From NCBI RefSeq assembly GCF_028641065.1, contig NC_073392.1, positions 38,006,001-38,070,000 of the forward strand: DNA of 64,000 nucleotides, given 5' to 3'. The stretch is from Leucoraja erinacea (Eukaryota). The position numbers and the translations under genes were made by a program. The first letter of the stretch is position 1, and every line of letters starts with the position of its first letter. A model generated the notes under the pieces. It made no database searches. It was not told where the DNA came from and was given only the letters and a program-made list of their open reading frames with translations. Positions 45 to 63,597 of the stretch are shown one piece after another.

Positions 45-424
45 GTCACCTATCCATGTCATGTCTGAGGAAGGATCTTAACCCAAAAGGTCGCCTGTCC
101 ATGTTCTCCAGAGATGCTGCCTGACCTGCTGGATTACACCAACACTTTATTTTACTGAAGATTCCAGAATCTGCAGTTCCTTTTTACTCTTTATTAGTCA
201 GCTCCCAATATTTTCCCAAAAGGCCACTTTTTCTGATAATTGGAATTGTGAAATACATTTCAATATTGCTGAGCATTTCAAATTATCTAACAAGGAACTG
301 CAAATTCAGGAATCATAAGTAAAATAAAGTGTTAGTGTAATCCAGCAGGTCAGACAGCTTCTCTGGAGAACATGGACAGGTTTTGGATTAAGATCCTTCC
401 TCAGACATGACATAGATAGGTGAC
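45..424. repeat. Long inverted repeat (arms 45-182 and 292-424)
   Basis: The arms are reverse complements over about 135 bp, both derived from the Penelope terminal unit. Confidence 0.9.
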
Positions 425-464
425 GGTATGAACATTGACTTCTCCAATTTCAGGAAATACTCAT

Positions 465-762
465 CAGGTAAAGCTGCTGCCATACAGCACCAGAGACATG
501 GGTTTGTGCCTGACTGCGGGTGCTGTCTGTACAGAGTTAGTACATTCTCTCCATGACCTGCGTGGGTTTTCTCCGGTAAGCTCCGGTTTCCTCCCACATT
601 CCAAAGACATATAGGTTTGAAGGCTAATTGTCTTGGTATAAATGTAAATTGTCCTTGGTGTATGTACGATCGTGTTGGTGTGCATGGGATCACTGGTCGG
701 TGCGGACTCAGTGGGCTGAAGGGCCTGTTTAAGTGTTGTGTCTCTAATGTAAACTAAACTAA
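465..762 (+). mobile_element. tRNA-derived SINE (HE1/V-SINE type)
   Basis: GGGTTTTCTCCGG...GGTTTCCTCCCACA.TCCAAAGAC core, CR1-derived GAAGGGCCTGTTT tail and (CTAAA)n. Confidence 0.85.
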
Positions 763-969
763 TTTGATGTTTCAGATGAAAGGTTGGTCATCAAATGCTG
801 ATTATTTTTCTCCATTGATATCACTTGACCAGTTGATTATTACCAGCTTTCATTCCGTTTTACATTCGATTTCCAGCATCTGCATTGATATGATTTTGGA
901 TAATAGTAAAGATTCGACTTTGGTAGTTGTAATCAGTTCCAACAGAGCCAAAATCATGAGAGTTGCAAC

Positions 970-1400
970 CAGGGCTGCCAACTCTCAAGCAAACTCTCAC
1001 GTCCTCACGCTCATCAGAAATTTTCTCACGCTCAGTGGTGAGAGTTTTGTGATCAACGACAACTTTCAAAAACTCGAGAGAGAACTGGAAGGAGACAGGG
1101 GGACAGGGGGGTGTTGAGGGGGGGGGTGAGAGCAGAGAGCGGGGACAGAGGGGGATGCGGAGAGAGGGGAGCGGGGCGAGAGAGAGAGAGGTGTTTGAGG
1201 GGCTGGCGAAAGAGGGAAGAAAGAGCAGCTCCGGGGGAGGAGCAGGCCTCAGTGAGAGAGAGAGGGAGAAAGAGGGCCGTAAAAGGAGGGGGTCGAGAGC
1301 GTTGCGCCGCTGCCGTGAGAGAGATGGGGGGGGGGCTGTGCCGAGATTTGCCAGAGGAGAAACCGGCATGGAGCCTGGGGGAGAGTGAGGCTGGGAGGGT
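970..1400 (+). mobile_element. Left end of the same CAGGGCTGCCAAC family
   Basis: CAGGGCTGCCAACTCTCA followed by CTCACG repeats and a purine-rich tract, as at 20635. Confidence 0.65.
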
Positions 1401-1554
1401 GAAATGAGGGGAGAGACAACCAGTGGCTGGTGAGGAAATAAGTACCAAGCACTGAGGTAGATACAGAGGGGAAGATAGTGGAATTCAGAACAGAGGGGGG
1501 TGAAAGAGAGGTGAAAGCATCCTGCTTGCCTGCTAGATTTTTCACTTACTGTAA

Positions 1555-2572: not shown

Positions 2573-2639
2573 TGGTATAGCAAAAAATGCTGGAGAAACT
2601 CAGCGGGTGAGGCAGCATCTATGGAACGAAGGAATGGTT

Positions 2640-2667: not shown

Positions 2668-5370
2668 CCATTCTTATTACACTTTGTCATTGTGGAATAA
2701 TAATGGAAGAATCGCCTGCCATTTAAACTGCAGCAGGTAGTTTGCATCCTCTCTAAACATAAAAATCATTAATAGGAAAAAAAATCAGCAAAAATCTCAA
2801 ATTTATTGTAGTCCAGCCTTTACAATACTAATTTAATAAAATATAGAATAAAATCTTTCCTAATTTATCAGTGCAAGCTCTATGGGTTTGCTGCGATGAA
2901 TGTCGTTGCATTATCCTTACAAACGCCTATTGCATACACTGGCATTACAGTCTACCAGATGATTACTCTCATCCTGCAGTGTAGGGCTTAAGTGTGCTGA
3001 TACTTATTTGCATAATATTGAGAGTGAAGAGAGCCTTGGCTATTTGTGTGTAATGCTGTTACACGTGTGATGTTCAAATTCATTCTTTGCCACTTCCTGA
3101 TTCCCAATCCTGATTTATACTGACGTTTTAACAGCCGGCGACCTTGAAACATGATTGTTTAACAGAAGCAATTATCAGGGGAGCTTGCATTAGGTTACAC
3201 TAGATCATGAAAGCTGCTGAATAGAGAAAGGCAGGCACAAAGTACAGCCCATTGCATCAATGTTATATGAATTTGCTGATCGGTAAATCCATCAACATAG
3301 GCCTGCCCTGAGCTCCACAACGAGGCACCGTAACAGCTTCATCTTCCTTCAGTCACTGCAATACCACTGCATCCGGAACCTTGACAGCTTCAGCTGGGTA
3401 TTTTTATTTATTCATGGCCTGCAAAAGCATGAAGTCAGAGGTAGGTGAATTATGCAGTGCAGCAAGTGACTGCAGTAACATTTGTAATCTGATGAATAAG
3501 CTGTCTGAATCTTCGACTTCATCGGTGTTCACATACTGGTTTAACAGTGGGACAGTATTGACGTTATGAGTGCAGTAAGCTACAATTTGTTGTGTGATGT
3601 AATGAAGGAGAGATATAGAAGGTGTGGATAGAGGGCAGATTTACATGGAAGTTGAAACTCTGTTTTAGTGGAGGCGAGCAATAATATTTCTTAAAATACA
3701 CTGTATTGCTCTTGAAGCATGACAACAAAGCTAAAAGGAGCAGTTATGGGCAGAGGTCATTTATTTGTGTTTCGTGTGTGAGGTGTGTAGTCAAGTGATG
3801 TCATTCAGGTGTAACCTGAGATGTTTAAATAATCCCGAGGTATTTTGTTTTATTGTTTGGAAGGTGATAATTTAATGAAGGGAAACAGACGGGGTGACCA
3901 AGGGTAAAGGGTAAACTAAAGAGAACAAGTAAAAATTACTGTGAATCTCACTTTTTAACAAGGAAGGGAAGAAAGTCCAGGTTATAATTGAAATTTAATC
4001 TGATATCATTTTTAATTGATTAACAGAAGATATCCATAATAAATAAGAACTCCTTTTATTAAATAGTTGCAACATTGAGCAATGGTTATGACTTTGTTGT
4101 GTTAATGAAACAGATTGTCCTCAAGCAGGCATAAATACTTGGTTAAAAAGATATATTGATTTTTTTTTAGCAATGTTCCTTCAAAATAAAACGCAAGATA
4201 TGTAGGATAATATTTTTTTATTTCACTGCCATCCTTGAGAATTAATTCTCTTAAAAACAGTAATAATACTTTGATTGTTAACAAAAAGCTTTTTTGTGTA
4301 TTTGCATTTGTTCTTATGTTTCCTGGGCTACGAGATTGTGAAAATACTGTTCTTTATTAAAAATGGTGTGTCTTGAAATTGTTCTTTTTACATTAAGGTA
4401 CTCTGGGGTGATGACATGGGGGCAAGTTTGGTTTGATGTGCTAACTGAATGGATCTTTCAGCAAATGGAGGAGATTTTTACAAATGGAAGATGTTAATGC
4501 TTTCAATAAATATTATTCATTTTGAAAAGGTGATGAAGAAGTTAATAAAGGCAGGGCGGTAGACATTGTTTACCTAGACTTTTTAGCAAGGCCTTTGACA
4601 AGTTTATGTTTGGTAAGCTAGTCTAGAAGTTCAGATCACTTGAAATCCAGAGTGAGCTAGAAAACTGGATACAAAATTAGCTTGATGGAAGGAGTTAGAG
4701 GTTGGTAGTGGAAGGTTGTTATTCCGTTTAGTGGCCAGTGGTGTATTGTTATTGTTTGCTGCTAGATCCACTTTTGTTTGTCATCCGTGTTAATGATTGG
4801 GTTGACGATGTTGTTAACAGATGCAAATGACACCAAGATTTGTGATGTAATGGACAGTGCAGAATATTCTCCCAGATTGGACCAGGATCTAGATCAAATG
4901 GGAAAGTATACTAAGGAATTACAGATAGAATTTAACACAGATAAGTGCAATGCGTTGCATTTTGATAACTTAAACTAGGCCAGGACTTGAACAGTAAATG
5001 GTTGGACCTTGGAGAGTATTGTAGAATAGAGAGACCAAGAGGTACAGATATTTACTTCCCTGAAAGTGGTGACGCAGGTAGTCATTGTTGTGCAGAAGGG
5101 GATTGGCATACTTGCTTTCACCGGTCAGGGCCACCCAGCACAGGCGGTTGGACATCATGTTGCTGTCATTGGTGAGGCCACACTTGGAGTATTATGTGGA
5201 GTTCTGGTTGCCCAGCTAGAGGAAGCATGTTATTAAGCTGGAAATATACAAAGAAGTTTCATGTGGATGTTATTGGGACTTGTGGGCTGGAACTATAGGG
5301 AGAGTCTGGGTAGGCCGGAACTGTTTTCCTTGAGTCGAAGGAGATTGAGGGATGACCTTATGGGGGTAAA

Positions 5371-5720
5371 CAGGTCCACCACCGATTTTCCAGCACCCTT
5401 GGTTCCAGAGCATTGCTGTATCATCCGTTTTGCCGGCCTTCCAAGAGTAGTCGAACGGTCCGCCTAGCCGAGGAATCCCAGATACCAGCTCACAAAGTCA
5501 ACCTCGGAGGTTGGCTATGGGAATGGATCTGCCAGCTCCGTCCAGGCTAGAATTTCAAAGCCCCAGCAACGAGGCAAATTCGACCCACCTATTGGCTGTG
5601 GAAGTTGGCTATGGGGACTGATGTGCCGGCTGTGGCGGGGCTGGAGTTCCAGAGTCCCATCTGCAGGATGAAAGTTTGACCCCCCGCCGACCCCCCCCCC
5701 CCCCCCCCCCCCCCCCCCAT
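5371..5720 (+). mobile_element. Probable non-autonomous DNA transposon fragment (Tigger/pogo-like end) inside a CR1
   Basis: Starts CAGGTCCACCACCGATTTTCCAGCACCCTTGGTTCCAGAGC, homologous to the reverse complement of 11895-11963. Interrupts a CR1 that resumes at about 5730. Confidence 0.45.
5691..5718. repeat. Poly-C tract (28 nt)
   Basis: Direct reading. Confidence 0.9.
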
Positions 5721-6444
5721 CTAAAACTTCTGAGCCTAGGTTTGAAATGAGAGGCAACATTATTTAAGTGACCTAAGGGACAACTTTTTTACACAGAGGC
5801 TGGTGGATATATGAAACCCGCTGCCAGACAAAGCTACAGAGTTAGGTACAATTACAATATTTAAAAGACATTTGGAAAGGTACATGGATTAAAAAAAGGT
5901 TTTAGAGGAATATGGGACAAACACAGACAAATGGAACTTGCACAGATACATATCTTGGTCAGCATGGATGAGTTGGCTGAAGGACCTGTTTCTATGCTGT
6001 TTACCTCTATTACTAATTAGAGCAATAGCTGTGTAGCTGATTTTTAAAATATTTCGAACTTGAAGGTGTGGAATGTTGATTTATTTTATTGAAGGACAGC
6101 TGGGAGATTCCTAATCCTATCAGTTAATTATTGGAAAAAATGCAAATCCAAGAATAGATATTTTCATTAGGAGTGTTTATTTTAAATTAAACATTACTCC
6201 ATTTCTCAAGAACTTTTAGTTCTTTATAATCTTTTAACTAGAGAGCAGTCATAAGCTACTATCTACTTAATTGACGACCCTTGGACCATCCTTAACTGGA
6301 CTTCACTGGACTTTATCTTGCATGAAACATTATTCTCTTTATCATGTATCTGTGGATGGCTCGAATGTAATCATCAATCGCTGACTGGTTAGCTTGCAAA
6401 AAAAAGCTTTTCACTGTACCTCAGTATACGTGACAAACTAAACT

Positions 6445-6645
6445 CCCTTGACTGTGTGGGTGTTCTCCAGGTGCTCTGGTTTCATCCCACATTCCATAGA
6501 AGTGCAGGTTTGTAGGTTACTTGGCTTCTGCAATTTGTCTATAGTGTACAGGATCTAACCCGTATACGAGTGATTGCTAGTCAGCGCAGACTTTGTGGGC
6601 CAAAAGGCCTGTTTCCACGTTGCATCTCTAACCTAAACTAAACTG
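6445..6645 (+). mobile_element. HE1/V-SINE, 5'-truncated
   Basis: Core plus (CTAAA)n tail. Confidence 0.75.
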
Positions 6646-6764
6646 AACAAGGACCTTGGATAGACACAATCTGCTGGAGTAACTCTGCGGGACAGGCAGC
6701 ATCTCTGGAGAAAAGGAATGGGTGATGTTTCGAGTTGAAGTCCTTCTTCAGACCTTTCACATCT

Positions 6765-7560
6765 ACTGCGGCTCCACACAGAGATGATCACTTCGGTTTC
6801 TGAGAGGCCCGATTGTCTCCCTAGTTACTTTCCTTCCCTAAATGTAGTTATAAAATCTCTTTGGATTTTCCATATTATTATCTACCAGAGTTAGCGCCTG
6901 CCCTCATTTTGACCACCTGATTTATTTCTTAAATATGTTCCTCAGTTCCCAAACCTCCTCCAGGAATACACTTGATCCCAGCTGCCTAAACCCATCCCAT
7001 ACCTCCTTTGTCTTCATCAGAGCCTCATCATCCAAGTTTCCATACTCCTACTTGCTTTGTCCTTCTCTCAAATAGGAACATTTGTGGCCTAAACTCTGGT
7101 CTCACTTTCCGTTCGTTCCTTTGCCCGCAAACAACCTACGCCAATAAACTTGAGCAAGTTCCTGTCTAATGCCCTCAAAGTTGGCCTTGCCCCAATTAAG
7201 AATTTTAACTCGTAGGATGCCACGTCCTTAGCCATCTATCTATATATTATTAAAACTCTCATCTTGACCACTTCCTGTCTGCGTTGTAATTAAATTTGCG
7301 CAAAATTTGTCCCCCATAGCGCTATGATTTTTCGCCAGCCTACTCACCATCTCCTCTGCTGCGTCAAATGGGTTTTGTTCCGATCGATGAAATAGTACAA
7401 CAGTTATGAAGGTTTTGAAGGTTTTCCCTCTCCACCACACACCCCCTCCAGCACCCCCCACCCCTCCCACTTGGCACTATGGTAATGCCAGTCTATGTTG
7501 GGAAAGTTTAAATCCCTGCTGTGGCAACCTTATTAGTCTCGCTGCTCCCTGCAGTCTCCT
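6765..7560 (-). mobile_element. CR1 LINE endonuclease/linker fragment
   Basis: Minus-strand GDLNFPNIDW-like motif near 7490-7520 and downstream ORF2-like sequence. Confidence 0.55.
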
Positions 7561-9017
7561 GACATTTACATGTCACTGAAAGCAGTGCTTTAACTGATAT
7601 ATCAATTATTTCAAGGGTAAATGTTCCAGCATCCAAGTTAGCTGCTGAATGCCGAGCCCTTTCATTCCATAAATTGCCAGGTGGAACAAATCCATTGTAA
7701 AGGGTGTTTTAGAACAGTGTTATCTCCAAAGCTAGGCTCCACTACGCTGCGATACTTAACCTAGCTGGATGAGAAATTTACGAACATTCAGTGCATTAGA
7801 ATTCCATGCTGTTCTGATGAGGTCATCTTCCCCAAAATGCACAGCAGGAAGAAATTATACTTTTGCCAGTTGGGTTTCAATGGAACATTTTAAAGATAAA
7901 TACTGGTATGTTGATATTCCCCTTTGCTGAACAGCTTTGAAAACAGATATTCTTGTGGTTGAAGAGAACAAGGACAGATTTGGTTTAATACAGTAGTTAA
8001 AAAAGTACTTCTAATATTTTTCTGCAAACCTTAACCAAGCTAGCAATTTCTAAAATCAAATTAAACACTGTACTTTGTTTGAACCTGAAAACATGAAGGG
8101 GAGAACTGGGACTAAAGAGGATTTGCAGAGAAAATGATGATTATTTTGAGATAAAAGGATGATCACCAAATAATTGGGACTGTGTTTGAAAGCAGGGAAA
8201 CAATGGTCTCTCCAGCAGGTTCTAGTCTATTGCCAATATAGTTGCTGATATCAGCAACATAAATGCTACAAGTGGAAACTGGCCATCATTACACATGATG
8301 CTTGTTGGTGTCTATTGAAAAGGAATGCAGCATCCACCGATGGGACTTTGAAATGGGACTTTGAATGAGATGAAACAATACTTCTGTGCAGCCTTTATGA
8401 TAATTGAAGTCACTTTTGTAATTTGGAATAGCTTGTCTAAGAGAACAATCTTTTGGACGCAAGTCTCAAGATGAAACCTTTATTTTCAATAACTGAAATT
8501 TGTTGTATCTCAAATGTTCAATCAAAATCAGAGGAACATTGACACAGGAGTAGACCAATCTGCCCTTTGCCCTGTTCTGCTATTCAATTAGACCATTGCT
8601 GATCTGCATCATAACTCTATTTACTTGCTTTGGTCTGTATTGCTTAATACCAAACAAAAAAAAATACTTGTCTGAATTTGAAATGGTCAAATTATTAGTT
8701 TCTCAGTTTTCTCTTGGTGCAGAGTACAAGTGTGAAGTCATAGTTATTACAGAGTTGTGAGCTAAATACTCATGGTTTCTTCTCCCCAAAGTCGCCACAT
8801 GGCAAAATGATCCAAATATGAATCCAAACAAACACTGCATTTGAACAGAAACAAAATGAAAACGTTAAGGTTCTCTCTTGAGAGATGACGTCAGCTGTGG
8901 ACCTGTTGCAGCGGTAAACTGCAGTGGATGAAGGCTGGCTGGAAGGCTGGAGTTAATGTGCGTCAGTCTCTCAAAACATTTCTTTGTGATCCCATTTTCT
9001 CATCCATTGTCTACACT

Positions 9018-9360
9018 ACAGGCTAGATGCAGGAAAAATGTTCCCGATGTTGGGGGAGACCAGAACCAGGGGTCACAGTTTTTGTGGAGAATTTAGGACT
9101 GAGATGAGGAAAAACATTTTCACCCAGAGAGTTGTGAATCTGTGGAATTCTCTGCCACAGAAGGCAGTGGAGGCCAATTCACTGGATGTTTTCAAGAGAG
9201 AGTTAGACTTAGCTCTCAGGGCTAACAGAATCAAGAGATATAGGGAAAAAGCAGGAACAGGGTACTGATTTTGGATGATCAGCCATGATCATATTGAACG
9301 GTGGTGCTGGCTCAAAGGGCCAAATAGCCTACTCCTGCACCTACTTTCTATATTTCTACA
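9018..9360 (+). mobile_element. CR1 LINE 3' end
   Basis: MFPMLGETRTRGHS...FTQRVVNLWNSLPQKAVEANSLDVFKRELD. Confidence 0.9.
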
Positions 9361-9892: not shown

Positions 9893-10315
9893 TTAGATTT
9901 GTCCTGTTTCTTGTGGACTCGTGCAGTGAATTGCACTGGAACTGTTTGGAGAAAAGCGTCCAGTTAAACAGCAAAGTCTTCAACATCACACTTGGAATAC
10001 TCTCTGGTCTTGTTGCCTTTTGATGTGTTGGGTGATCTTTAGTTGTTACAGTTACATGAAGACATAAATTGAATTGATAAAAGACTGATTCTGGAGATGG
10101 GAAAGACTGAAAGAAAAAGTTGGCACTTCTGAGATTGTAGTAAAGGCTGTTTGGGCATTTGACTTTGAGCTTTGCCATTTTTGTGGAGAGGAATGTTTTT
10201 GTACACACATCCTTATGTCAGTTGTACGTTAGCTAAATTGATCTGTTGATTATGGATCGGTTAGCTCTATCCATTACATGTGCTTTTGCTGCATGACAAC
10301 CATGTAATCCCGTGA

Positions 10316-10880
10316 AGGTAGACACAACATGCTGGAGTAACTCAGTGGGTCAGGCAGCAGCTCTGGAGAGAAGGAATGGGTATGTTTTGGGTTGAGACCC
10401 TTCTTCAGATTGATGTCAGAGGAGGGGGCGGGACAAATGGAGGAGGCCCAGGACAGAAAGGTCAGATTGAGAATGGGAGGGGGAGTTGAAGTGCTGAGCC
10501 AGCGGGAGATCAGGTAGGTTAAGACGGACTGAGCAGAGGTGTTCAGCGAAACGATCGCCGAGCCTGCGCTTGGTCTCGCCGATGTACAGAAGTTGACACC
10601 TGGAACAGTGGGTACAGTAGAGGAGGGTGTAGGAGGTGCAAGTGAACCTCTGCCTCACCTGGAAAGACTGGGTCGTTGGATGGAGTCGAGGGGGGAGGTG
10701 TTGGATCTCCTGCGGTTGGAGGTGAAAGTACCTGGGGAGGGGGTGGGAAGGGACTGGTTGACCAGGGAGTTTCGGAGGGAATGGTCTCTGCGGAAAGCAG
10801 AATGGGGTGGAGATGGGAAGATGTGGCCAGTAGTGAGATCCCGTTGGAGGTGGCGAAAATGTTGGAGGATTTTCTGCTGT
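10316..10880 (-). mobile_element. Penelope-like retroelement 3' fragment (GIY-YIG endonuclease plus terminal repeat)
   Basis: QRFTCTSYTLLYCTHCSRCQLLYIGETKRRLGDRFAEHL...AQHFNSPSHSQSDLSVLGL, followed by the short terminal unit with a decayed hammerhead motif (10316-10410). Confidence 0.88.
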
Positions 10881-11235: not shown

Positions 11236-11510
11236 GGTCACAGTTTAAGGATAAGAGGGAAGTCTTTTAGGACTGAGATGAGAAAATCATTTTTTACACC
11301 GAGAGTGGTGAATCTGTGGAATTCTCTGCCACAGAAGGTAGTTGAGGCCAGTTCATTGGCTGGATTTAAGAGGGAGTTAGATGTGGCCCTTGTGGCTAAA
11401 GGGATCAGGGGGTATGGAGAGAAGGCAGGTATGGGATATTGATTTGGATGATCAGCCATGATCATATTGAATGGCCTAATCCTGCACCTATTTTCTATGT
11501 TTCTATGTTT
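11236..11510 (+). mobile_element. CR1 LINE 3' end
   Basis: RVVNLWNSLPQKVVEASSL and a (TTTCTATG)n tail. Confidence 0.9.
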
Positions 11511-11569
11511 CCTCTGACTGATGCAGTCGGCTGAGTTACTCCAGCACTTTGTGTCGAATCCCTTTAAAA

Positions 11570-11963: not shown

Positions 11964-12431
11964 CACTATTTCACTATCCTTAATTCTGTTGTAAATTCAG
12001 GAGCAAGAATGATACCTAAGGGTTGCAGTTTTCAATTTCATTCAATCTCTTCACAAAATAACTGGAAATTATTTATTAGCAAAATACAACATGTTGGATG
12101 AACCCAGCGGGTCAGACACCATCTGGAGGAAATGGACAGATGACGTTTTAGATTCTTCTGACTTACTCTCTGTGGACATTATTTATCTTTGGGCCGATTA
12201 TTGGCAAGTAACATCTGTATCAGACAAGTGCCAGATAATTACCATTTCCAACCACAATCCATTGACATTCTGTCATTGCAATTAATTAAATCTCCACCCT
12301 CAGTTCCAAGGCGTCACCATTGGCAAGGTTCGTAGAGCTAAACAGAGAATAGGATGGGATTTGCCTCCGTATTTCCACAATGTGTTTACATTAATTATCG
12401 GAACACATCAGGAGCTTTATGGTCATTCAAA

Positions 12432-12977: not shown

Positions 12978-13164
12978 TAACAGTACTTATAGCTCAACAC
13001 CATCCAGTAGTACCTAATCTAGTTGATTAGATCTCCATCTACCACTCTAATTACCACATACCATTGTATGGATTGTCCACAAGATGTGACCAGGGCAAGA
13101 AAAAGACACAAAGTGCAGGAGTAATTCAGCAAGTCAGGCAGCATTTCTGCTGAACATGATTAGG

Positions 13165-13192
13165 TGATGTTTCGAGTCAGGACCCTTCTTCA
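13165..13192 (-). ncRNA. Minimal hammerhead ribozyme-like motif in unit of about 13100-13330
   Basis: Reverse complement reads CUGAAGA-A-GGGUCCUGACUC-GAAAC-AUC. Confidence 0.45.
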
Positions 13193-13467
13193 GGCTGATT
13201 ATGGTGGAGATGGGGGTGGAGGGTGGACAAAGTCTGGAAAGTGATAGGTGAATACAGGCAAGGACTTTTATTTGGATTAGCAGTTGGTTGAACAAAGACC
13301 AGAGATGAAAAGACAAAAATTGAGAGATAACCAAAGCTTCCATGTTGCTTCTCAACCCTATGACATCCACCAGCTAGCAGAACAAATGAATCAAGTGCCT
13401 GGGAACAAAACCATCAACAAAATCATCTGCAAAGTCATACACTCTCCTGACATGGATATGTATCTTA

Positions 13468-14972: not shown

Positions 14973-15699
14973 AAAATTATTTGCAAACCTCACTCTTGCA
15001 GTAACGGAACACTGTTAATAAGGATGCAACATAGAATGTTATTTCTTTTGAGATCTTGTAGTTATCCTTCCAAATTTATTTGCAAAAAAACCATGAACTA
15101 TAATAATTGAATACTTAGAAAGTTATCAGCATTCCAGTTTTGATTCAATATTTAGTTTTCATTGATCCTTCCCCTTTTAATTATTTAACTTTTCAATTGG
15201 ATATCTTGACTCCATTGCCATGACTATGGATTATTTATTGTCTCTAGTTTTCACAGCGAAGCATGAGCTTTAATTTTGACTGTACCTCCCAACTGAGCAG
15301 TACTTCTTTATCAGGTTGCATATCCTTTGGCCCACCTTAGAATAAATGCTCGGCAAAGCTGGAGTTTATATATTTTTTGTTAATTTTCTTTTATCTCCTC
15401 TCTACATAAATACTACCTGACCTAGATTACCTCCAGTCATTTCTGTTTTACTTCAGATTTCCAGCATTTTTAGTAGTTTCTTTTGATATTATGATGTAAG
15501 CTTTAGCTTTAGCCTGGTGAGAGAATCATTTATTCCTTTATAGTGTACTTGAGGAATTTAGAGTGCATGCAGTCTTCAGATTTGTAGGATGAATAATTGG
15601 ACCAGGACATGCAACTGAATTTCAACTTGCAACTGAATTATGCAGTTCTTGCATAATTCTCATTTTTGTAACAATATTATAAATTCCCACGTTTCCAGT

Positions 15700-19406: not shown

Positions 19407-19560
19407 NNNNNNNNNNNNNNNNNNNNNNNNNNNNNNNNNNNNNNNNNNNNNNNNNNNNNNNNNNNNNNNNNNNNNNNNNNNNNNNNNNNNNNNNNNNNNN
19501 NNNNNNNNNNNNNNNNNNNNNNNNNNNNNNNNNNNNNNNNNNNNNNNNNNNNNNNNNNNN
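19407..19560. other. Assembly gap (154 N)
   Basis: N run. Confidence 1.
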
Positions 19561-42121: not shown

Positions 42122-42404
42122 ACCCTTCTCCTGTCTAGTCCCCTCTGACCTACATTGAAAACACCTCGCTTGTTCTTCAACACTTCAATAGTTTTCAATT
42201 CCAATGGCCCCATTGTTTCATCGTTACCAAGGATGTCCAATCCCTTTACATCTACATTTCCGACCTGGGAGGTCTTAAGGCCCTCCAGTTCCTCCTTGAA
42301 CAGAGACCCAAACATTTCACCAGTACTAACTCTCCTCTGCCCGGCAGAACATCTCCTCACACTCAACAACTCTCTTTTGACCCCTCTCATTTTCTTCAAG
42401 TCAA

Positions 42405-44849: not shown

Positions 44850-45165
44850 AACCCCGGCATTCCCTCACATTTTATCCCTCCCACACCCAAGTCGCACTAG
44901 CTTCTCGTTTTTCACCCAACAAACAGCTAACAATGGCGTGCTTCCTTTATCATCATTTTTGCATACTTTCATTCATTGTTCTTTATCTCTCTACATCATC
45001 GTCTATATCTCTCATTTCCCTTATCCCTAACCAGTCAGAAGAAGGGTCTCGACCCAAAACGTCACCCAGTCCTTCTCTCCAGAGATGCTGCCTGTCCCGC
45101 TGAGTTACTCCAGCTTTTTATGTCTATCTTCGGTTTAAACCAGGATCTGCAGTTCCTTTGTACAC
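44850..45165 (+). mobile_element. Penelope terminal-repeat unit with mutated hammerhead motif
   Basis: CAGAAGAAGGGTCTCGACCCAAAACGTCACC...GATGCTGCCTGTCCCGCTGAGTTACTCCAGC...CTGCAGTTCC. Confidence 0.7.
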
Positions 45166-47112: not shown

Positions 47113-47412
47113 CCGATGCAGAGGTAGAGTTTCTGTCTTATAGTGCCAGAGACCCGGGTTTGATCCTGACTACGGGCGCTGTCTATACAGAGTTTGTTCA
47201 TTTCCCTGTCACCACGTGTGTTTTCTCCACGTGCTCCAGGTTCCTCCCTCATTCCAAAGACATTCGGGCCTGTCGGTTAATTGGCTGCTGTAAAGTACCC
47301 TTAGTGTGTATGAGGCGAAACTGGGATAACACAGAACTAGTGATCAGTGGTCGGCATGGACTCAGTGGGTTGAAGAGCCTTTTTCGATGCTGTATCTCTG
47401 AACTAAACTAAA
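47113..47412 (+). mobile_element. HE1/V-SINE
   Basis: CCCGGGTTTGATCCTGACTACGGG head, core and tail. Confidence 0.85.
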
Positions 47413-47584
47413 CCTCCACTTCTCCAACTTTCGTCTTTAGTGCTTGAGTATGGAAGTCAAAGATGAGCTGATGTGATTCAGTAAGGAACCACTTGCCTGA
47501 AGCTTTCAGCTCACTAACCTTTTTGACATTCAAAGTTTTCAAATATAATTACGTAATATTTATTTCACTACCATTCTTCTGCTC

Positions 47585-48788: not shown

Positions 48789-49071
48789 TGTGGAGGGTGA
48801 TGCTGCGGGAAGTGAGACTGGCACCTCTCTTGACAGCCCCTCAAGCTACAGCCACGGCCCAATAACACTCAGCGCTGCCGCTAGCCCTGATCAGTTCGAT
48901 GGTTCTTCATTGGTATCATTCGCTATCTCACCCGGTCAGCAACGTCCTCGGAGGCCAAAGCTACAGCATTCCACCTCCATATTACGGAAGCAAGCAGAGG
49001 AAGATGCAATCAAGCGCTCAAGATCTTTGTCAGAGAGCTATGAACTCTCCTCGGATCTGCACGATAAACAG
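48789..49071 (+). CDS. IQSEC1: IQSEC1 internal coding exon (283 nt)
   Basis: Branch-like CTAAT, T-rich tract and TTTTGCAG acceptor; donor CAG|GTATCG (phase 0). Encodes VEGDAAGSETGTSLDSPS...RRPKLQHSTSILRKQAEEDAIKRSRSLSESYELSSDLHDKQ, characteristic of IQSEC1. Confidence 0.96.
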
Positions 49072-49154
49072 GTATCGACTTTTCTTTTGGGGATATGTCA
49101 ATGCAAAAAGCAAAAAAAATAGAATTAAGTTATTTTTGTTTCATGTTAGTTCAA

Positions 49155-49475: not shown

Positions 49476-50880
49476 TATCCTGCACTCTGTTCTTCTTCTT
49501 TTCCTCTTTTGCACTACCTGGCATACTCATGCATGGTGTGCATGAGGTTTTTCAATGTATTTTGATACAAGAGAATGATAAACCATTTCCTTTTAAGACA
49601 AATCAAATCAGTGGAATTTTGCTAAATTAGCTTAAATCTCACCAGCACCCTATGAATTTATACTTGTATCATAAATTTGATTGAGGACGGCTCATATTTC
49701 TTGAGGACAGTCCATATATCTTGAGGAGAGTCAATGGAAATTTATGGGATATATGAATTATTGTTAGAAACGGCTGAGGTACTGGAAAGCTGGACGGCAG
49801 CTAATGTTGTGCCTTTATTTAAGTGCCTTTTTAATTGCCTTTTGGTGTTTTTTTAAAGCTTCCTCATCCTCTATCTTCCTGCTAATAATATTATAGGCCT
49901 CTTACTTTTATGGTGTCTTTGAATTCCTTCTTCAGCCACAGTCACCTCATTCTCCCCTTAAAATCTTTCTTCCACTTTGGCTTGAAAAGAATCTGTGTCT
50001 TCAGAATTACTCCCAGAAATTTCTGCCATTGCAGCTACACCGTCATTCCTGCTGAGGTCCCTTTCCAATCAACTTTAGCCAGCAACTCCCTAATGCCTAT
50101 GTAGTTACCTTTACTCAACAGTAATACCAACACATCTTCTCACTCTCAAACTGCAGGTTGAATTTTCTCATATTATGGTCAATACCTCCGAAGGTTTTTC
50201 TTTACCTTAAGCTCCCAAATCAAATCCAATTTGTTACACAGCACCAAATCCAGATTTGCCCTATTTGGCTCAACCCCAAGCTACTCTATGTAGACAGCTC
50301 GGTGGCATTCTACAAGGATCTGGGCCAAACGCGGGGATGTGGGACTATTGTAGATGGAGCATCTTGGTCGGTGTGGGCAAGTTGGGCCGAAGGCTGCTTC
50401 CATGCTTATGACACTAAGACTCCAAATGTCACCTATGTTCTCTGTAGAAGCTGCCTGACCCACTAAGTTACTCCAGCAGTTTGTGCCTTTATTTTGTAAA
50501 CTAGTATCTGCAGTTCCTTGTTTCTACTGTTCCTTAGCCTCTACCTCTCTTGCAGAGTTGCATATTTAAACAGTTTAGTATTTAGCCATTGTAGACATGT
50601 CATGAATTTCCAAGTGTTTAAATGATTTTTCAAATTTAAGTGGTAAATTCTTTTGCATCATTGTTCTGCACCATGTTGTTCGTTTGCTTCAAATGCTTTT
50701 TAATGCATAGTGCATAGATTAGCATTTACAATAAATCGGGCTGGTATTCATGTTTATACACGAGCTTTATGCTCAGTGCTTGTGGTCAAATCTGGTCATG
50801 ATGTTTTAACAACAAATACTTTTTCTATCCTAATTTTGCTCTTTTAATCAATCTCCTAAAGATCATTCTGTTATGTAATC

Positions 50881-51150: not shown

Positions 51151-51741
51151 TAATCTGCCTCTATAATTAGTCACTTTGGCCTTTTGTCCATTTCATTTGT
51201 CATAATGTTCTCAGAGTCATGAGAGATTTTTTATACATTTAAAAACAAATTCTCCTGACTCTCCTGACTGACCTTCTAGCTCTAGGTCACCCTTAACATT
51301 CTAGAATAGTCTGTGCCTCTATCATTGTACATTAATATTGAAAACAGTGTTTTAATCTCTGCAAGTTATGTCTGCAGTATTCCAAATGCATTCCTTACAA
51401 TGCTCATCCATCTCAGTGTCGTGTAAACAACCCTTCTATGTTTTTTTTTTGCTGTAATTATTGATTTATATTAAATTATTCACTTCATTTTGGGACTTTG
51501 TAACTTTGACTATCAGTAAAAAAAGACACAGTAAACTCAGCGGGTCAGGCAGAATCTCTGGGGAACTTGGACAGGTGATGTTTTGGGTCAGGTCCCTTCT
51601 TCAGACTGATTGAGGTGGGAGGAGAGAGGAAACTGGAAGAGAGGTGGAGATGGTGGTGCAGCGTCTGTCACAGCCTGACAGCACCAGGTTACTCGGGTGT
51701 TTCCGGGTGCTCGGCTTTCCTCCCATATTCCAAAGTCGTTC

Positions 51742-54269: not shown

Positions 54270-55640
54270 CCCATGGCTGTGTAGCCAGTCACAACTCTAA
54301 TGCCATCTTAAAATTTGCCGCCAACGTTACTGTCATTGGGTCCACTTGACCAGTCAGAGTGCTGGAGGGAGATCGATACTTCAGGAGAGGAAAGATGAGA
54401 GTCCATACGTGTAGGAAGGAACTACAGATGCTGGTATAAACCGACGATAGACACACAATACAGACTGAAGAAGTGTCTCGACCCAAAACGTCATCCATTC
54501 TTCTCATTCCAAAGATGCTGCCTGTCCTGCTGAGTTACTCTAGCATTTTATGTCTATTTGAGGGACCATACACCTGCCTTCGCTGGCGGGGCAGAGGTGG
54601 AGCGAGTCATCAACTTCAAGCTCCTGAGCTTGGACATCTCTGATGATCTTTCTTGGGCCCAGCACATTGGTGCAAATACAAAGAAAATGTCCACCGAGGT
54701 TTGATAATTATTTGGCGCCCAGCAAATATGCACGCCCAGCTATTAATTTTTTGATCCTCTCCACCTGTAAACAGGATTGTGGGTCCTCATCCTTCCCCTA
54801 GCAAAGTCCACAATCAGTTCCTTGGCTTTACTGATGTTGAGAGCCAGCTTGGTGTGCTGGCACCATTTGGTCAGGTAAAGTACAGGAAGTACAAAATATA
54901 GGAAGGAGATAGAGAGCTTCGTAATATGATATCAAGACAACAATCTCTCCCTCAATGTCTACAAGATGAAGGAGCTTATTGAGTTTAGGATGCATGGTGG
55001 AGTACATACCCCAATCAGCATCAATCAGCTGATGTGGAAATGTTGAGACCGTCAAGTTCCATCACATATCAACAACAATCTGCCCTGGACCAACCACATT
55101 GAAGCTACAGCCAAAAAAGCTTACCAACGTCTCGACCTCCTGAGACCAATAAGGAAGTTTGGCATGTACCAGCTTCTAAAATGCACCATAGAAAGCATAC
55201 TATCCGATTACATCACAGCTTGGTTTGAGAACAACTCTGCCCAAGACCACGAGATATTGCAGAGACTTGTGGATGTAGCCTGCTCCTTCACACATACCCA
55301 CTCTCCACCATTGACTCCATCTACATTTCATGCTGTCTCGGGAACGTAATCAAGGACCGTTTTCACCCGGTCATTCCCTCTTCTCCCTTCTTCTATCAGG
55401 TAGAAGGTATAGAAAGCTTGAAAGCACGTAGCACAAAACTTAGGAACAGCTTTATCTCTTCTATTCTCAGAATCTTCAAACATTTCTCCCATCAGCTTGG
55501 GTGTAGTACTGATTTTCCAATGCAGACATGGGACTATTTCCTCAGGTTGTGTAATGCTACAATGCTGCAAAACTATTTTCTGCACTCGGGTATTTTTCTT
55601 CCCATAGCTTTACCCGTGATATTTCTGTATGACTTAATTG
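54270..55640 (+). mobile_element. Fragmented Rex1/Babar-type LINE remnants (with a short inverted piece at about 54740-54870)
   Basis: KFAANVTVIG, KCTIESILSDYITAWFENNSAQDHEILQRLV and RNSF remnants. Confidence 0.7.
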
Positions 55641-58230: not shown

Positions 58231-59447
58231 ATGTTGAGCAGATTGAACCTAATGGAGTTGAGAAGAATGAGAGGTCATGGAAGTATATCAGATTCTGGCG
58301 AGGTAGATACTGTAGGATATTGGAGGCATAGTTACACATTTAGAACAGAAATTAGGGAGAACTCTTTCTCAGAGAGCCAATGTGAAACAACACCAATTTT
58401 AGATCTCCTCACAAAGTGAAAAATCCTCATTATCTCGCCAAGTTCACTCAGAACCTTTCAAAGAACTCTCATTATTTAAACACAGCATCTTCCTTTTCTC
58501 TCTGCAGAAGGGTGAGCAAATGTGTTTGAGGATGTGAACTGTGATGTTTTATAAGAGTTGGAAACTCATAGAGGGTTTTCATTTTGCAGGGGACTGAACA
58601 GGAAGCATAAGGCATTCAGCCTGATTTGATGAATGCATACAGTGAAATGTTAGCAGAAGTAGGCTGTGTTGCATATTGAGAGAAAGCAATGCTCTTAATG
58701 GAATGGGTAGGAAGGAACTGCAGATGCTGGTTTAAACCGAAAATAGTCACAAAATACTGGAGTAACAGCGGGACAGGCAGCATCTCTGGAGAGAGGGATG
58801 GGTGATGTTTCAGGTCGAGACCCTTCTTCAGACCCTTCTTCTTCACTGAAGAAGGGTCCCGACAAACAGCTGGAATATTCTGCATTGACATAATCTTGCT
58901 TCCTTAAATGTATTTCAACTTGTTAATTTTAGATTTCCTCTATTCAGACAATGATTCCACTTCTCCCACTTAACCCTCCTTCTGAACCAACCTTTTTCCT
59001 TTTGCACTTACACCTCTTTTATTTTGCAAATCATTCATTTTTGCCTTCTGATCTTTCATAACCTTTACCCCATTACAAATGTTGTGGCTTGTCTCCCACC
59101 CTCGTCCTCCCCTTTAACATTCAGACCGTTCACCTTTAACATTTCCCAACTCTGACTGAAGGTCATAGATTTGAAACCTTTCCACTCTTGCTTTCTCCAT
59201 AGTTGCTGCCAGATCTAAGTGTTTCCAATATTTTCTATTGTTATCTTGAAAGAATTCTGGCTTAATCTGTATAATCCTGCAATGTGCACTTAAAACCTAT
59301 TACTTCAATTATGGTTTTGGACATTTAAACTGTTAATTGTTGCAACTGAATAATTATATGATACGTAATAAAGTAGATTAGTACTGAATTGTAAACTGAG
59401 AATTTAAGCCATTTCAAACAGTGTAAAATTAGGATTGTTAATCCTCG

Positions 59448-59846
59448 CTAGAATTCAGAAGATTGAGGGGGGATCTTATAGAAACTTATAAAATTCTTAA
59501 GGGGTTGGACAGGCTAGATGCAGGAAGATTGTTCCCGATGTTGGGTAAGTCCAGAACAAGGGGTCACAGTTTAAGGATAAGGGGGGAAATCTTTTAGGAC
59601 CGAGATGAGAAAAACATTTTTCACAGAGAGTGGTGAATCTCTGGAATTTCTGCCACAGAAGGTAGTTGAGGCAAGTTCATTGACTATATTTAAGAGGGAG
59701 TTAGATGTGGCCCTTGTGGCTAAAGGGATCAGGGGGTATGGAGAGAAAGCAGGTACAGGATACTGAGTTGGATGATCAGCCATGATCATATTGAATGGCG
59801 GACTCGAAGGGCCTACTCCTGCACCTATTTTCTATGTTTCTATGTT
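59448..59846 (+). mobile_element. Young CR1 LINE 3' end ending about 55 bp before the large exon
   Basis: LEFRRLRGDLIETYKILKGLDRLDAGRLFPMLGKSRTRGHS and a TTTCTATG tail. Confidence 0.92.
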
Positions 59847-59902: not shown

Positions 59903-61194
59903 GTGGAGATGCTTGAGCGTAAATATGGAGGACGTTTCATAACGAGACATGCGGCTCGAACCATTCAGACAGCATTCCGCCAGTATCAAATGAACAAAAA
60001 CTTTGAAAGACTGAGAAGTTCTATGTCTGAGAATCGCATGTCCAGACGCATTGTTTTGTCCAATATGAGAATGCAGTTTTCCTTTGAAGGACCTGAGAAA
60101 GTCCACAGCTCATTTTTTGAGGGGAAACAGATGTCTATGACTGATGATGCAGGAAAATTAGGAGCTATCGTTCAATCAGATTGTGAAGATCTCGGAGATT
60201 CAGCAGTGATGAAGTCTCCAGCTAATAACAACGATTTTGCAGATGCAATAACTGAGCTTGAGGATGCATTCTCAAGGCAAGTAAAATCACTTGCAGAATC
60301 AATTGATGACGCACTAAACTGCCGCACCTTGCACACTGATGATGGGCATCCTACTGAGCAGGCCAAACGTTATAAAGAAAATATGCAAAAGGATGAAGAG
60401 ATGGACAGTATATCTTATGCTAAATCTCTTCATGAAGCTGAACGCAGAAAGTTGGATGACATGTCTGCGTCGTACAGTGATGTCACTCTGTATATAGATG
60501 AGGAAGAGCTTTCTCCTCCACTCCCGGTATCGTTACATTCTGTGGATAGGCCATCCAGCACAGAATCAGATTTACGTCTCCGTTCAATAAATTCTGCCCA
60601 GGAATACTGGTCCATGACCCACAGGGATGACAAACTGGACACGGATACAAGCTGCAGGAGCACCCCTTCCTTAGAGTGTCAGGAGGCGAGGCTTCGTATT
60701 GATCACCTCCCTTTGCTAACGATTGAGCCGCCCAGCGATAGTTCAGTGGATTTAAGTGACCGTTCAGAAAGAGGCTCGCTAAAGAGACAAAATGCCTACG
60801 AGCAAAATCCCAATAGCCAGCGTGGAAGTCCCAAACACATAACACACATATCACATTCAATACCCACTAGAATACACCATCGTGATGAAGAATCTGCTCG
60901 CCATCGACCACGTCAGATTGACAGCCATCTTGCTATAAACGGTTCAGCAAATCGACAAAGCAAATCAGAGTCTGACTTTTCCGATGGGGATAATGACAGT
61001 ATCAATAGCACTTCCAATTCCAATGATACGATAAACTGCAGCTCAGAATCCTCATCCAGAGATAGTTTACGAGAACAAACTTTGAGCAAACAAACATATC
61101 ACAAGGAAACACGAAACAGCTGGGATTCGCCTGCATTTAGCAATGATATCATAAGGAAACGCCACTACCGTATTGGTCTAAACCTCTTCAATAA
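59903..61194 (+). CDS. IQSEC1: IQSEC1 large coding exon (1292 nt): IQ motif, Ser-rich linker, start of Sec7 domain
   Basis: Acceptor TTTTCCAG|GTG and donor AA|GTATGT (phase 2). VEMLERKYGG, IQ motif RHAARTIQTAFRQYQMNKNF (about 59945-60004), and ...RKRHYRIGLNLFN(K) at the Sec7 start. The ORF-track tail after FNK is intronic read-through. Confidence 0.97.
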
Positions 61195-61751
61195 GTATGT
61201 TGTTTTTACTTATCTTTCCATCTCACATTTTGCTCAAATTCTGATGTTGATCTGTGAAATTTAAAGCTGCCCCTTTATTGCTTTTTGATTGAGCAACGGG
61301 CCCATATTTGAAAGGGTATTTGTTAATTATAGTCTTGACTTAGGGAAGTGGAAAATGGTCATCTTGTGAGAAAAAGGAGAAAGGTGTGAATGCTTAGCTT
61401 TTCAAACTTAAACTTTCATGTATTTTTCTGATGTATTATCTTTAATACCTCCGAGTTTAAAATCAAACAATTTTAGGATGTTTCAAATAACAATTTCAAA
61501 ATGATCAGAATGTGTGAATGAGTATCAAACAAATCCTATATTAAGCTTTATTCTTTCTCTTTGCCTTATTTAATATCATTTAATGAAATGTCCATAGTTA
61601 TTGGAGACATTTTGGCCTATGAGGCTTTGCAGCTGCCAGAATCTTCAGTTATACAACAGGGTTTCTACTCCTGGCAACAATAATATGCAGGGGAGCCTCC
61701 TGTTATTTGTCCAGAGCCCCAGGAAATGTTAATCTCTCATAAGGTGTGGAA

Positions 61752-62035
61752 TTTAGTTTAGTTTAGAGGTACAGCATGTAAACAGGCCCATCGGCCCACT
61801 AAATCCGCACTGACCAACAATCTCCTGTGCCCCAGTTTTATCCTACACACTACGGGCAATTTTACAGAACCTACAAACCTGCACCTCTTTGGAACGTGGG
61901 AGGAAACCGGAGCACCCGGAGAAAACCCACGCTATCACAGGGAGAACTTACGAACATCGCACAGATAGCATCCATAGTCAGGAGTGAACCCAGGTCTCTG
62001 GCGCTGTAAGGCATCAACACTACCACTGTGCCACT
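61752..62035 (-). mobile_element. HE1/V-SINE
   Basis: (TTTAG)n, AAACAGGCCC and GTGGGAGGAAACCGGAGCACCCGGAGAAAACCCAC in antisense. Confidence 0.88.
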
Positions 62036-62536
62036 CTGCTGCCCTGCTGCCCTAAGCTACAGATTGGTGCATTTTCTATTAGGGTAGATCTTCTTAATAA
62101 AAAACTGTTCTCCTCTGGCTTTTACGTAGTTAGCAAGTCATGTCCTCCCAACACAGGGAAGGTTCTGTCTCTCAGTCAGTTGATTGCTGAACCCTGGACA
62201 TTGGTGATCCACCATGGACAGTCCAACAGAGGAAGAAGCATCTTCCGCTGACTTCCCTGCACTAAACTGGATAAAATACTTGCTGAAAACCCCAGGTCAA
62301 TTAATTCCAAGAATATTAACTGGCTACAGTCAGAAGATAGAATACAAACTAACTTTTTATGTTGAATTCACTTAAGTGTAACAGTATTTAGTATACTTGT
62401 TATTTTGTTCATTTTAAATTATTTGAAATCTATTTTTCAGTCTATATTTCATTTGTTTCCAATATTTAAAACAAAATCAAAGATATTAACAAACATTTTG
62501 GTTCAATTGACAGTTTTGGCAACTAGTACATTGTGT

Positions 62537-62565
62537 CTGAAGAAGGGTCTTGAACCCGAAACATC
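62537..62565 (+). ncRNA. Minimal type-I hammerhead ribozyme-like motif in a Penelope-derived unit (62535-62668)
   Basis: CUGAAGA-A-GGGU(CUUGA)ACCC-GAAAC-AUC. Core nucleotides and stem II are intact; stem I is short and there is no helix III loop. Confidence 0.55.
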
Positions 62566-63597
62566 ACCTCTTCCTTTTCTCCAGAGATGCTGTCTGACCC
62601 TTTGTGTTACTCCAGTTTTTTGTGTCTATTTCCAGTTTCAACCAGCATCTGCAGTTACCTCCTACACAGCAGTACACTTTGGGGACTTGGCCTTATCAGG
62701 AATTCTGCAATAGAGCCTTTTTTTACCCTACACCCTACCTTTGTAGTCATGTGGGAGCTACCTCCCCAGCGTAAGACTGAGCCTGGGCTCCACTCCAAGT
62801 AAGCTCCCTGTCCAGCAGAAGATCCAACTCAAAAAACCCTTGTGAATCTCCTTCCAACCCCTCGTGGACCTTTCTCTGGAAATCATAAACTTTCAGGAAG
62901 GTGACTTTTGTTTATGTTGAATTTTAAGGAATTATGGAGAATGATATGAGGGGCTCTTAATCAATACAATATAGAAATATAACCTTCCATTTGTAAAGCA
63001 TCATATTTCTTTTTTTGGACACCCTTGATGAGTTGCAGTAAATTAAGAACTTTTGCAGTATCATCTTGCATATAACGCAGGAAATACCAACAACAGTGCA
63101 CAGGATGCCAACAGAAGCAGCAAGCACAAAGTGTAACTCAGCGGTTCAGGCAGCATCAGGGAAGGGAATGGACTGGTGACATTTCAGGTCGGGACTTTAC
63201 TTTATGAGATGCTGCAGTTTGATGAAGATGATGTAGTAGGCGAGAAATTAAATCACACTGGCATTGCCACTGAAATAATGTAAATATGTCCGTTTCTTCC
63301 AGGGTATATTATCTGCAAGATATTGTGTATATGTGCAACACGATTCCCCTAACTCGATTTTGTTGCGTGCAATAATCATTTGTCATTTTACGTGCATAAG
63401 CTCCCATTGTGAAAGGACATCTCGGGCAGCAATTTTCTATCAACGACCTTGCATCTCTGTCCCCTAGTTTTTAAATTTTCTACAAACGGAAATGGATCCA
63501 TCTTATTCAATGTCTAAGCTAATCAGATTTAATTTGTGATCCCCATACTTGCAAACCTCTCTATTAGAATTCTGCAGTTCTGACAATATCCTGATGT

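Follow-up and report, generated by a model that had tools for sequence, protein, structure and literature searches.

Hammerhead-bearing repeats abundant in the genome of the skate Leucoraja erinacea as probable run-off products of a Penelope-like element

A short repeat with a minimal hammerhead motif is dispersed through a 64,000-nucleotide stretch of the genome of the skate Leucoraja erinacea (NC_073392.1, positions 38,006,001 to 38,070,000 of the forward strand; hereafter the window, in which positions are counted from its first base). The repeated unit probably corresponds to the first ~100 or ~135 bases of a Penelope-like element (PLE) of Neptune or Nematis type, and likewise to its end repeat and tail, most solo copies being dead run-off cDNAs of that element. 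The Penelope-derived origin and minimal type-I hammerhead proposed in an earlier note on this sequence were borne out by the anatomy of the element and by the fit to the published motif. Comparisons with the literature refer to the accessible portions of the cited articles.

Detection and abundance of the repeat

A profile started from slices of the window and refined by iteration on further parts of the genome detected 30 copies of the unit in the window, 15 on each strand. An earlier profile from window slices gave 29 copies at E < 0.01, and the best match in its reversed-window control had E = 5.2, i.e., nothing real. The exact 33-mer singled out in the earlier note, allowed up to three mismatches, matched four times in the window and never in 100 shuffles; with only four near-exact matches, the copies must have diverged. 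The repeat is confirmed as real, and all 16 of the positions named in the note for its 15–20 copies fall within profile matches. The unit is a 100–135-letter repeat with a long form of ~135 bases and a short form of ~100 bases. Two runs of N (19407–19560 and 29698–29969, 426 bases) hide any copies there from the counts.

To estimate abundance, 38 large contigs were sampled at round coordinates in 130 stretches of 10 kb each, spread evenly by hand, not formally at random, and with small scaffolds left out. This 1.3-Mb sample contained 623 unit matches (reversed control, 0; seven stretches empty), and bootstrap extrapolation gave 0.91–1.20 million unit fragments in the 2.19-Gb genome. The density in the window (30 per 64 kb) is that of the genome average, and the locus is not special. 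Only 30 of 627 unit matches were tied to an endonuclease end.

Parent element

The parent was sought with the endonuclease piece of the window as a protein query, and 150 of 72,338 first-look candidates were scored. Locus L051 is a partial tandem, in which the 3' part of an element is followed by a unit whose first base (A+1) is L051 position 2062. After this unit come an ATG ~35 nucleotides past the tail, a frameshifted 5' open reading frame (ORF) and an 800-codon open stretch encoding a reverse transcriptase (RT) with DKG and YIDD, a CX4CxxC linker and GIY-YIG; the ORF start lies ~165 nucleotides after +1. Downstream are an untranslated region (UTR) and, 3846 bp on, another unit, which ends with the tail. 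Since partial tandems have the unit ahead of the ORF start as well as behind the 3' UTR, it serves as the 5' end of the monomer and as the end of the pseudo-long terminal repeat (pLTR).

In P0001, compared by eye with the motifs of PMC8557442, a single ORF with an RT and, at its C-terminus, GIY-YIG was recognized, together with DKG, a CX2-5CxxC linker and a CCHH-type motif. By the motif rules of that article the parent appears to be an endonuclease-bearing PLE of Neptune or Nematis type, and not of Penelope or Poseidon type. A Pfam search at E ≤ 0.01 did not match the frameshifted PLE ORFs of the window; later matches to PLE ORFs (GIY-YIG, E = 5e-4; RVT_1, E = 0.02) were below the curated cut-offs. 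The parent shows pLTR partial tandems, inverted 5' copies, a tail of 30–40 bp and target duplications. ORF coverage in the sample fell from 34 matches at the C-terminus to 1–3 across the N-terminal half. Among the 30 best loci with a unit running into the ORF, 16 were partial tandems, 7 started within about -8 to +7 of A+1 and 7 were cut inside the unit. Units at both ends of four further loci (L052, L053, L054 and L058) seemed to be pLTR pairs and turned out to be unrelated neighboring copies.

The earlier note had placed the unit at the end of two GIY-YIG-coding Penelope fragments in the window. This held for the copy at 10316, where a short unit (10310–10413, minus strand, delimited by the profile) is the 3' end of a 5'-truncated PLE with a frameshifted ORF fragment at 10437–10867 (minus strand), comprising linker and GIY-YIG endonuclease with 87% and 67% identity to P0001. 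Near 35200 only a decayed endonuclease C-terminus was found, followed by ~450 nucleotides of pyrimidine UTR and an old unit at 35194–35268 (34700–35268 in all, plus strand); this remnant was recognized by eye and missed by tblastn. A third ORF-linked case, absent from the note, is a decayed long PLE on the plus strand (41837–44502), whose RT-to-endonuclease pieces (41837–44451) end in a unit at 44438–44502. It is split by another RT-type fragment (42667–43356, minus strand; Pfam ALKBH8_N match), which we take to be derived from a long interspersed nuclear element (LINE).

At three loci (L176:5120–5310, L123:7250–7750 and L099:3520–3780) the ORF start holds a second TGAAGAAG like that of the hammerhead, and several copies there are joined or flanked via post-tail sequence. 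These joints suggest that microhomology jumps took place there, or that copies were inserted into the 5' region of the element itself.

Ends of the copies and target duplications

Copies were classed by their 5' ends. Of 627 matches, 311 had the model start and 160 nucleotides of upstream sequence; 57 of these were dropped for poor columns 6–16, and the 254 kept comprised 117 solo, 71 UTR-bearing, 59 inverted and 7 direct copies. The upstream UTR is lost at the front edge of the motif, within the initiator-like TC|AGTCT, in ~70% of the copies that reach that edge. In solo copies the frequency of the native base is 0.71 at A+1 and drops to 0.42 at C-1 and 0.44 at T-2, as against 0.86, 0.89 and 0.87 at the same positions in the UTR-bearing class, whose extensions run from tens to 800+ nucleotides (median ~135). 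Target duplications of at least 8 bp were found for 26 of 94 solo copies, compared with 1.8 for swapped flanks, and in 17 of the 26 the duplication ends within -7 to +6 of A+1.

The 3' ends are bimodal, at model columns ~97–107 and ~130–134. The two sites lie ~37 nucleotides apart, which makes for a tail of ~37 nucleotides, inside the published range of 30–40 bp. Solo copies are real insertions, and the copies are not random truncations. The note's view that many copies begin close to CUGA is upheld, and the copies exist as discrete insertions with their own target duplications; its alternative, that all might be ordinary truncations, is contradicted by the fixed 5' boundary, the two 3' sites and the same duplications. 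Starts at the ribozyme cut were not in excess (3, 3 and 3 at columns 33–35 among 378 unpaired matches), and a ribozyme-cut template was rejected because 5' ends are not enriched there.

The same boundaries appeared in RNA-seq data. Loose ends in run X24 peaked at L051 positions 2062/2063 (+1/+2; 677 and 455 reads) and at 2156 and 2193 (1823 and 532 reads). They mark copy boundaries, not RNA ends: 97% of the 9,981 reads placed continued into unlike sequence, and they come from copies embedded in host transcripts; the source species of the runs was not confirmed. Single-cell runs X22 and X23 had ~4–5 times more minus-strand reads on the unit (L051:1850–2650), possibly from oligo-dT priming on the purine-rich antisense UTR.

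A CCAGCA motif stands before each of the two 3' end sites, in L051:2062–2260 and in all long units. Either copy is complementary to one and the same upstream AGAUGCUG segment; the motif may be a protein site present twice, or the basis of a fold with two states.

Inverted pairs

Close pairs of units in the genome sample were head-to-head in 103 cases and tail-to-tail in 7, with ~5 expected by chance, and inverted pairs make up ~20% of events. Arm lengths were counted in the 70 head-to-head pairs with both ends classifiable, 33 being left out: 57 were long+short, 11 short+short and 2 long+long (long+short expected, 34; p = 2e-8). A duplication surrounded the whole pair in 27 of the 70 (control, 1.5), and junctions often lay at short palindromes in the first 30 nucleotides. 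The count sharpens the published observation that inverted pLTRs have a tail at one end only (PMC3846280, PMC8557442).

Long+short pairs fit an enzyme able to extend the two strands from a pair of internal start sites, as described for the anole protein (PMC11167929). In PMC3846280 inverted junctions are ascribed to self-priming on an antisense template. Here the short arm extends further 5' in 17 of the 57 long+short pairs and the long arm in 14, which argues against a simple fold-back from the long arm. Later central deletions could yield the same arm pattern.

The hammerhead motif

As a motif, the hammerhead read in the earlier note (CUGANGA, an extra A, a 4-bp stem II, GAAA-CG-UC and a 2-bp stem I) holds good, and it appears to fit the published minimal PLE hammerhead (PMC4209133), the core CUGANGA/GAAA/UH being present with helix II and G10.1-C11.1. 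Across the majority sequences of six subfamilies, 0 of 11 core columns and 22 of 66 downstream columns varied (p = 0.028); constraint on these bases as promoter sequence is another possible cause of the core's invariance. The extra A and the ACGU palindrome are present in the majority sequence of most clusters. Stem changes between subfamilies are one-sided, with pairing kept via G-U. One stem II pair shows 10 double changes against 4.5 (p = 0.006), and unpaired columns co-vary far more through shared ancestry.

Preferential conservation of the core, whose absence among young copies the note had named as a refutation, was not found in individual copies: unbiased core columns mutate like downstream invariant ones (38/741, 5.1%, vs 398/6286, 6.3%; p = 0.23). 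G12 and the palindrome are affected by CpG decay. A complete motif, defined as core, both stems and ACGU palindrome together, was present in 56 of 627 sampled matches (~9%) and in 0 of the 30 window copies, four of which retain core and stem II. In an Rfam scan of the window no hammerhead family matched at E ≤ 1, and three chance matches fell on the palindrome at 31416–31496. Folding z-scores were not significant for five stretches; stem II formed in one of four short folds, and the predicted folds mostly paired the purine run with a downstream pyrimidine run. At L151:5017–5196 three copies of the hammerhead part lie head-to-tail at 42-nucleotide spacing, with GAAA-CGUC intact in the third only, an array that amounts to a natural near-dimer construct.

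The note also pointed out that sense copies would lie inside the IQSEC1 pre-mRNA. IQSEC1-like exons occur on the plus strand near 49018–49077 (weak, E = 0.034) and from 59900 (E = 1e-26), some copies stand in IQSEC1 introns in the sense direction, and the one at 62535–62665 retains core and both stems. That such copies act as live ribozymes cutting or regulating the IQSEC1 pre-mRNA is nevertheless very improbable, and an effect of the units on IQSEC1 is unsupported: the window holds no complete motif, no intact partner for the required dimer is nearby, the hammerhead does not form in those predicted folds that were examined, the even strand ratio (15:15) shows no depletion, and published minimal motifs are inactive as monomers and weak as dimers (PMC4209133).

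The boundary at +1 and promoter-like sequence

The 5' boundary reads TCAGTC/TCAGTCT, the initiator (Inr) consensus of PMC4581360 (Table 1). At strict spacing, an intact copy in locus L002 matches that article's consensus at 6/6 positions for the Inr, 9/12 for the motif ten element (MTE) and 5/6 for the downstream promoter element (DPE); its composite score is higher than at any of the 63,964 positions scored in the window, and offset 0 gives the best downstream match. The promoter-like sequence lies wholly within the unit (-2 to +33). An internal Inr/DPE promoter is described in D. virilis Penelope, upstream of its hammerhead (PMC2377424). On this sequence evidence we infer that the RNA starts at +1.

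Two other explanations of the boundary were weighed. One is that it marks a barrier to polymerase or integration instead of the RNA 5' end: RT copying tandem or read-through RNA would stall where the C-rich UTR begins, or joining would be favored at the near-palindrome TCAG-T-CTGA. In all subfamilies the C-rich tract does start exactly at -1, the palindrome is the exact joining point of ~10 pairs, and partial tandems show that RNA or cDNA can span the boundary; the steepest drop, however, falls between A+1 and C-1 and is not spread along the tract, the loss rate inside the UTR is low, and the site coincides with correctly spaced Inr/MTE/DPE-like elements, which leaves a barrier unlikely. The other is that the pyrimidine tract and CAG form a splice acceptor, with solo copies derived from spliced RNA bearing foreign upstream exons. 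Tract and CAG do directly precede the core, the intron of Drosophila Penelope ends at helix I of its hammerhead (PMC4209133), and the solo profile at -1 to +2 resembles the consensus of exon ends. The spliced-template model was rejected because target duplications abut +1 and do not lie an exon away (17 of 26 within -7 to +6); in addition, only 6 of 117 solo upstream flanks matched the L051 element, scattered and with no recurring donor. This reading is largely refuted, and we give it hardly any weight.

Origin of the solo copies

For the subfamily analysis 297 good copies were clustered into 6 groups, and also into 10 clusters (the smallest with 2 members). Each of the six subfamilies contains solo, UTR-bearing and inverted copies, and no solo-only subfamily was found among either set of clusters. 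UTR types track the unit subfamily (32/33 and 11/11), and few copies (7 of 254) repeat the unit directly, with no regular spacing. Mixed classes in each cluster, UTR tracking and rare tandems together argue for successive PLE masters, each shedding stubs.

The independently amplifying family proposed in the earlier note, similar to a short interspersed nuclear element (SINE) or retrozyme, is accordingly not borne out, given also the neutral decay of the core. Such a family would be non-autonomous, transcribed from its internal promoter and mobilized in trans by the PLE protein. It would account for fixed ends with their own target duplications, for about a million copies so seldom linked to an endonuclease end and for a promoter-like sequence contained in the unit, and non-autonomous PLE derivatives are known (PMC8557442; bioRxiv 10.64898/2026.07.22.740005). 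It is contradicted by the missing solo-only subfamily and the rarity of tandem arrays, and further by ORF-bearing elements that break at the identical +1 boundary and by copies that stop at the priming sites, without the downstream sequence needed by the anole protein (PMC11167929). A SINE-like head derived from RNA polymerase III transcripts was not found either: no Rfam structural-RNA family matches the unit, and the head is the PLE 5' end. We consider such a family improbable, and small solo-derived bursts may be compatible with the 297-copy sample.

The origin preferred here, run-off from a PLE template, would proceed as follows. The RNA would start at or near the A of TC|AGTCT, from an internal TATA-less RNA polymerase II promoter that overlaps the hammerhead and consists of an Inr plus MTE/DPE-like elements. 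The element protein would nick both target strands and prime cDNA at ~+100 and ~+135 on RNA not cut by the ribozyme. A cDNA that reaches the RNA 5' end would be joined to the target, giving a solo unit, or annealed by microhomology to a second cDNA, giving an inverted pair; a minority would continue into UTR and ORF, and longer copies would depend on tandem RNA made by read-through, or on a jump to the repeat at the 3' end. Solo copies would have no sequence beyond the tail and would then decay neutrally, which would leave the hammerhead under constraint in master elements only. For the anole Poseidon protein, cutting and extension of both strands, RT starts at two internal tail-defining sites, a requirement for 172 nucleotides of ORF and insertion without ribozyme cleavage in vitro have been described (PMC11167929); cleavage there is protein-assisted, yet dispensable for insertion in vitro.

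Several points weigh against this origin. The boundary is fuzzy, with about one-quarter to one-third of 'solo' copies running a few bases into the UTR, and a cap-derived extra G at -1 was not seen in solo copies (0.15). Four RNA runs showed no site where many molecules begin, although such libraries may not reveal one. The promoter score is ad hoc and was applied after the boundary was known, and the youngest subfamily scores lower (7.0 bits, a score reached by 5 of 9012 L051 positions). Of 23 ORF-start loci that reach +1, 16 extend further upstream in tandem form; this requires a template jump or RNA from read-through, the two not being separable here. UTR types tied to their own subfamily give no sign of jumps between families, and inter-family chimeras, sought as such a sign, were not seen. 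The in vitro precedent belongs to the Poseidon clade, not to this one, and central deletions within palindromes could blur arm lengths.

A more specific version, which we entertain but hold doubtful, is that the million stubs are integrated 'strong-stop' cDNAs, with a dimeric protein priming both strands on uncut RNA and with continuation dependent on a jump from the 5' end to the 3' repeat. The first 33 RNA bases would then be core promoter and hammerhead at once. The jump from the RNA 5' end to the 3' repeated unit, as in retroviral first-strand transfer, would build pLTRs and partial tandems; a failed jump would leave a solo unit, and two failed cDNAs annealed to each other a long+short inverted pair.

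Relation to known systems

The skate motif resembles the minimal type-I hammerheads that metazoan PLEs carry in their pseudo-LTRs (Cervera & De la Pena 2014, PMC4209133) in its core, extra nucleotide between 9 and 10.1, G10.1-C11.1 pair, palindromic 15.2–16.2 and pLTR location; those motifs, too, are mostly single and dispersed, and were related by the authors to truncated PLEs. The 2-bp helix I is that of a D. virilis variant, while helix II (4 bp) is shorter than usual, and the skate copies differ in having a fixed 5' boundary at the front edge of the motif. The skate has about a million fragments (~9% complete), against 4,000–9,000 motifs in coelacanth and Xenopus (PMC4209133).

Features shared with endonuclease-bearing PLEs (Craig et al. 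2021, PMC8557442; Arkhipova et al. 2013, PMC3846280) are the C-terminal GIY-YIG, DKG, CX2-5CxxC, partial tandems, strong 5' truncation, an adjacent inverted copy, target duplications, solo pLTRs and a 30–40 bp tail, often at one end only. Unlike the elements described there, ORF-less stubs dominate in the skate; its solo copies have their own duplications, whereas several duplication-less solo pLTRs were ascribed to recombination or deletion (PMC3846280). The Anolis Poseidon element PAc (Frangieh et al. 2024, PMC11167929) is alike in its hammerhead at the pLTR/5' junction, two internal RT starts bounding the tail, extension of both strands and lack of observed RNA ends at the ribozyme cut. It belongs to another clade, and its ORF begins inside the hammerhead, unlike the more distant ORF start in the skate; neither run-off stubs nor inverted pairs of long+short type are discussed in the accessible text of that article.

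Non-LTR retrozymes (Cervera and De la Pena 2020, PMC7229834; Li et al. 2026, bioRxiv 10.64898/2026.07.22.740005) are likewise non-coding, hammerhead-bearing and related to PLE pLTRs. They are head-to-tail tandems with mostly canonical hammerheads, expressed as circles, unlike the skate units, whose motif is minimal and which occur dispersed, singly or in head-to-head pairs. As to circular RNA, poly(A) and single-cell reads contained only a few go-back joints, which genomic duplications could also explain.

A literature search on hammerhead, Penelope and shark found nothing relevant, and no description of this unit family was found, though subscription reviews, Repbase or supplements may contain one. 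Among the matches listed, neither PLE run-off products (strong-stop, template jump, strand transfer) nor 'twin priming' in PLEs was described.

Copies and other repeats in the window

The following further copies were delimited by the profile. A long unit with its tail at 63–187 (plus) and another at 288–406 (minus), which has lost the GAAA-CGUC part of its hammerhead, form a tail-to-tail inverted duplication (63–406, 91%) with an identical 18-nucleotide upstream piece on both arms, an orientation seen in 7 of 110 close pairs in the genome sample. Short solo units lie at 2580–2667 and, starting at +2, at 6654–6753 (both minus). A long unit with a pyrimidine-rich 3' UTR upstream is found at 28292–28422 (minus), and the long UTR-bearing unit at 45032–45162 (plus) has the top score with two core changes. 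Old or partial copies are those at 773–884 (plus, weak, 23 bits), 11519–11565 (plus, model columns 53–104, without hammerhead), 15395–15475 (plus, a weak fragment), 36552–36658 (minus, core decayed), 59152–59239 (plus, weak) and 63122–63203 (minus, short, core decayed).

Other solo copies include a short unit at 12071–12163 (minus) with stem II deleted and a candidate 9-bp target duplication, a short unit at 25192–25294 (plus) with a 13-bp duplication, which keeps core and stem II and has lost the palindrome, and the long unit at 62535–62665 (plus), in which ACGU has become ACAU. The short unit at 13099–13198 (minus; core and stem II intact, palindrome lost) was binned as solo, yet its pyrimidine-rich upstream sequence (0.71) is probably native UTR. 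In IQSEC1 introns lie a long unit truncated at model column 21 (50418–50522, plus, sense) and a short UTR-bearing unit (51518–51609, minus, antisense).

Head-to-head pairs occupy 27757–27959 (long arm 27757–27851, minus; short arm 27862–27959, plus), 31825–32040 (arms 31825–31934, minus, and 31941–32040, plus) and 54410–54568 (long-tail arm 54410–54461, minus; short arm 54461–54568, plus). A pair at 31410–31528 (short arm minus, long arm plus) lacks the hammerhead and has a candidate 8-bp duplication. At 58708–58863 (minus) a long unit (58708–58833) is accompanied by a small inverted piece of the unit start (~58846–58863).

Unrelated repeats were also noted. A Tc1/mariner-like DNA transposon remnant with 101-nucleotide inverted ends (89%) and a DDE_3 fragment lies at 26201–27484. 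A second abundant dispersed repeat (501–762, 6468–6646, 17374–17499, 22339–22509, 28166–28299, 37618–37795, 47157–47416 and 61752–62009) presumably resembles the HE1-type SINE of sharks and rays. Repeated LINE-like 3' ends, some 91–95% alike (1582–1766, 2285–2455, 9052–9358, 11238–11475, 20193–20486 and 59543–59801), are taken by us to be of CR1/L2 type.

Significance

Minimal hammerheads in PLE ends are already published, and as a ribozyme or as a repeat the skate unit is ordinary. Its abundance matters for repeat annotation: ~100 Mb of the genome (~5%) may be such stubs, and the units can be mislabelled as SINEs. The value of the finding is mechanistic. How PLEs form pseudo-LTRs, tails and inverted ends is described in the accessible literature as undefined, and numbers open to testing can be drawn from about a million natural products whose ends are fixed. 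The ends of these copies point to the likely start of the RNA, to a template that was likely not ribozyme-cut, and to two priming sites likely used on opposite strands of one insertion.

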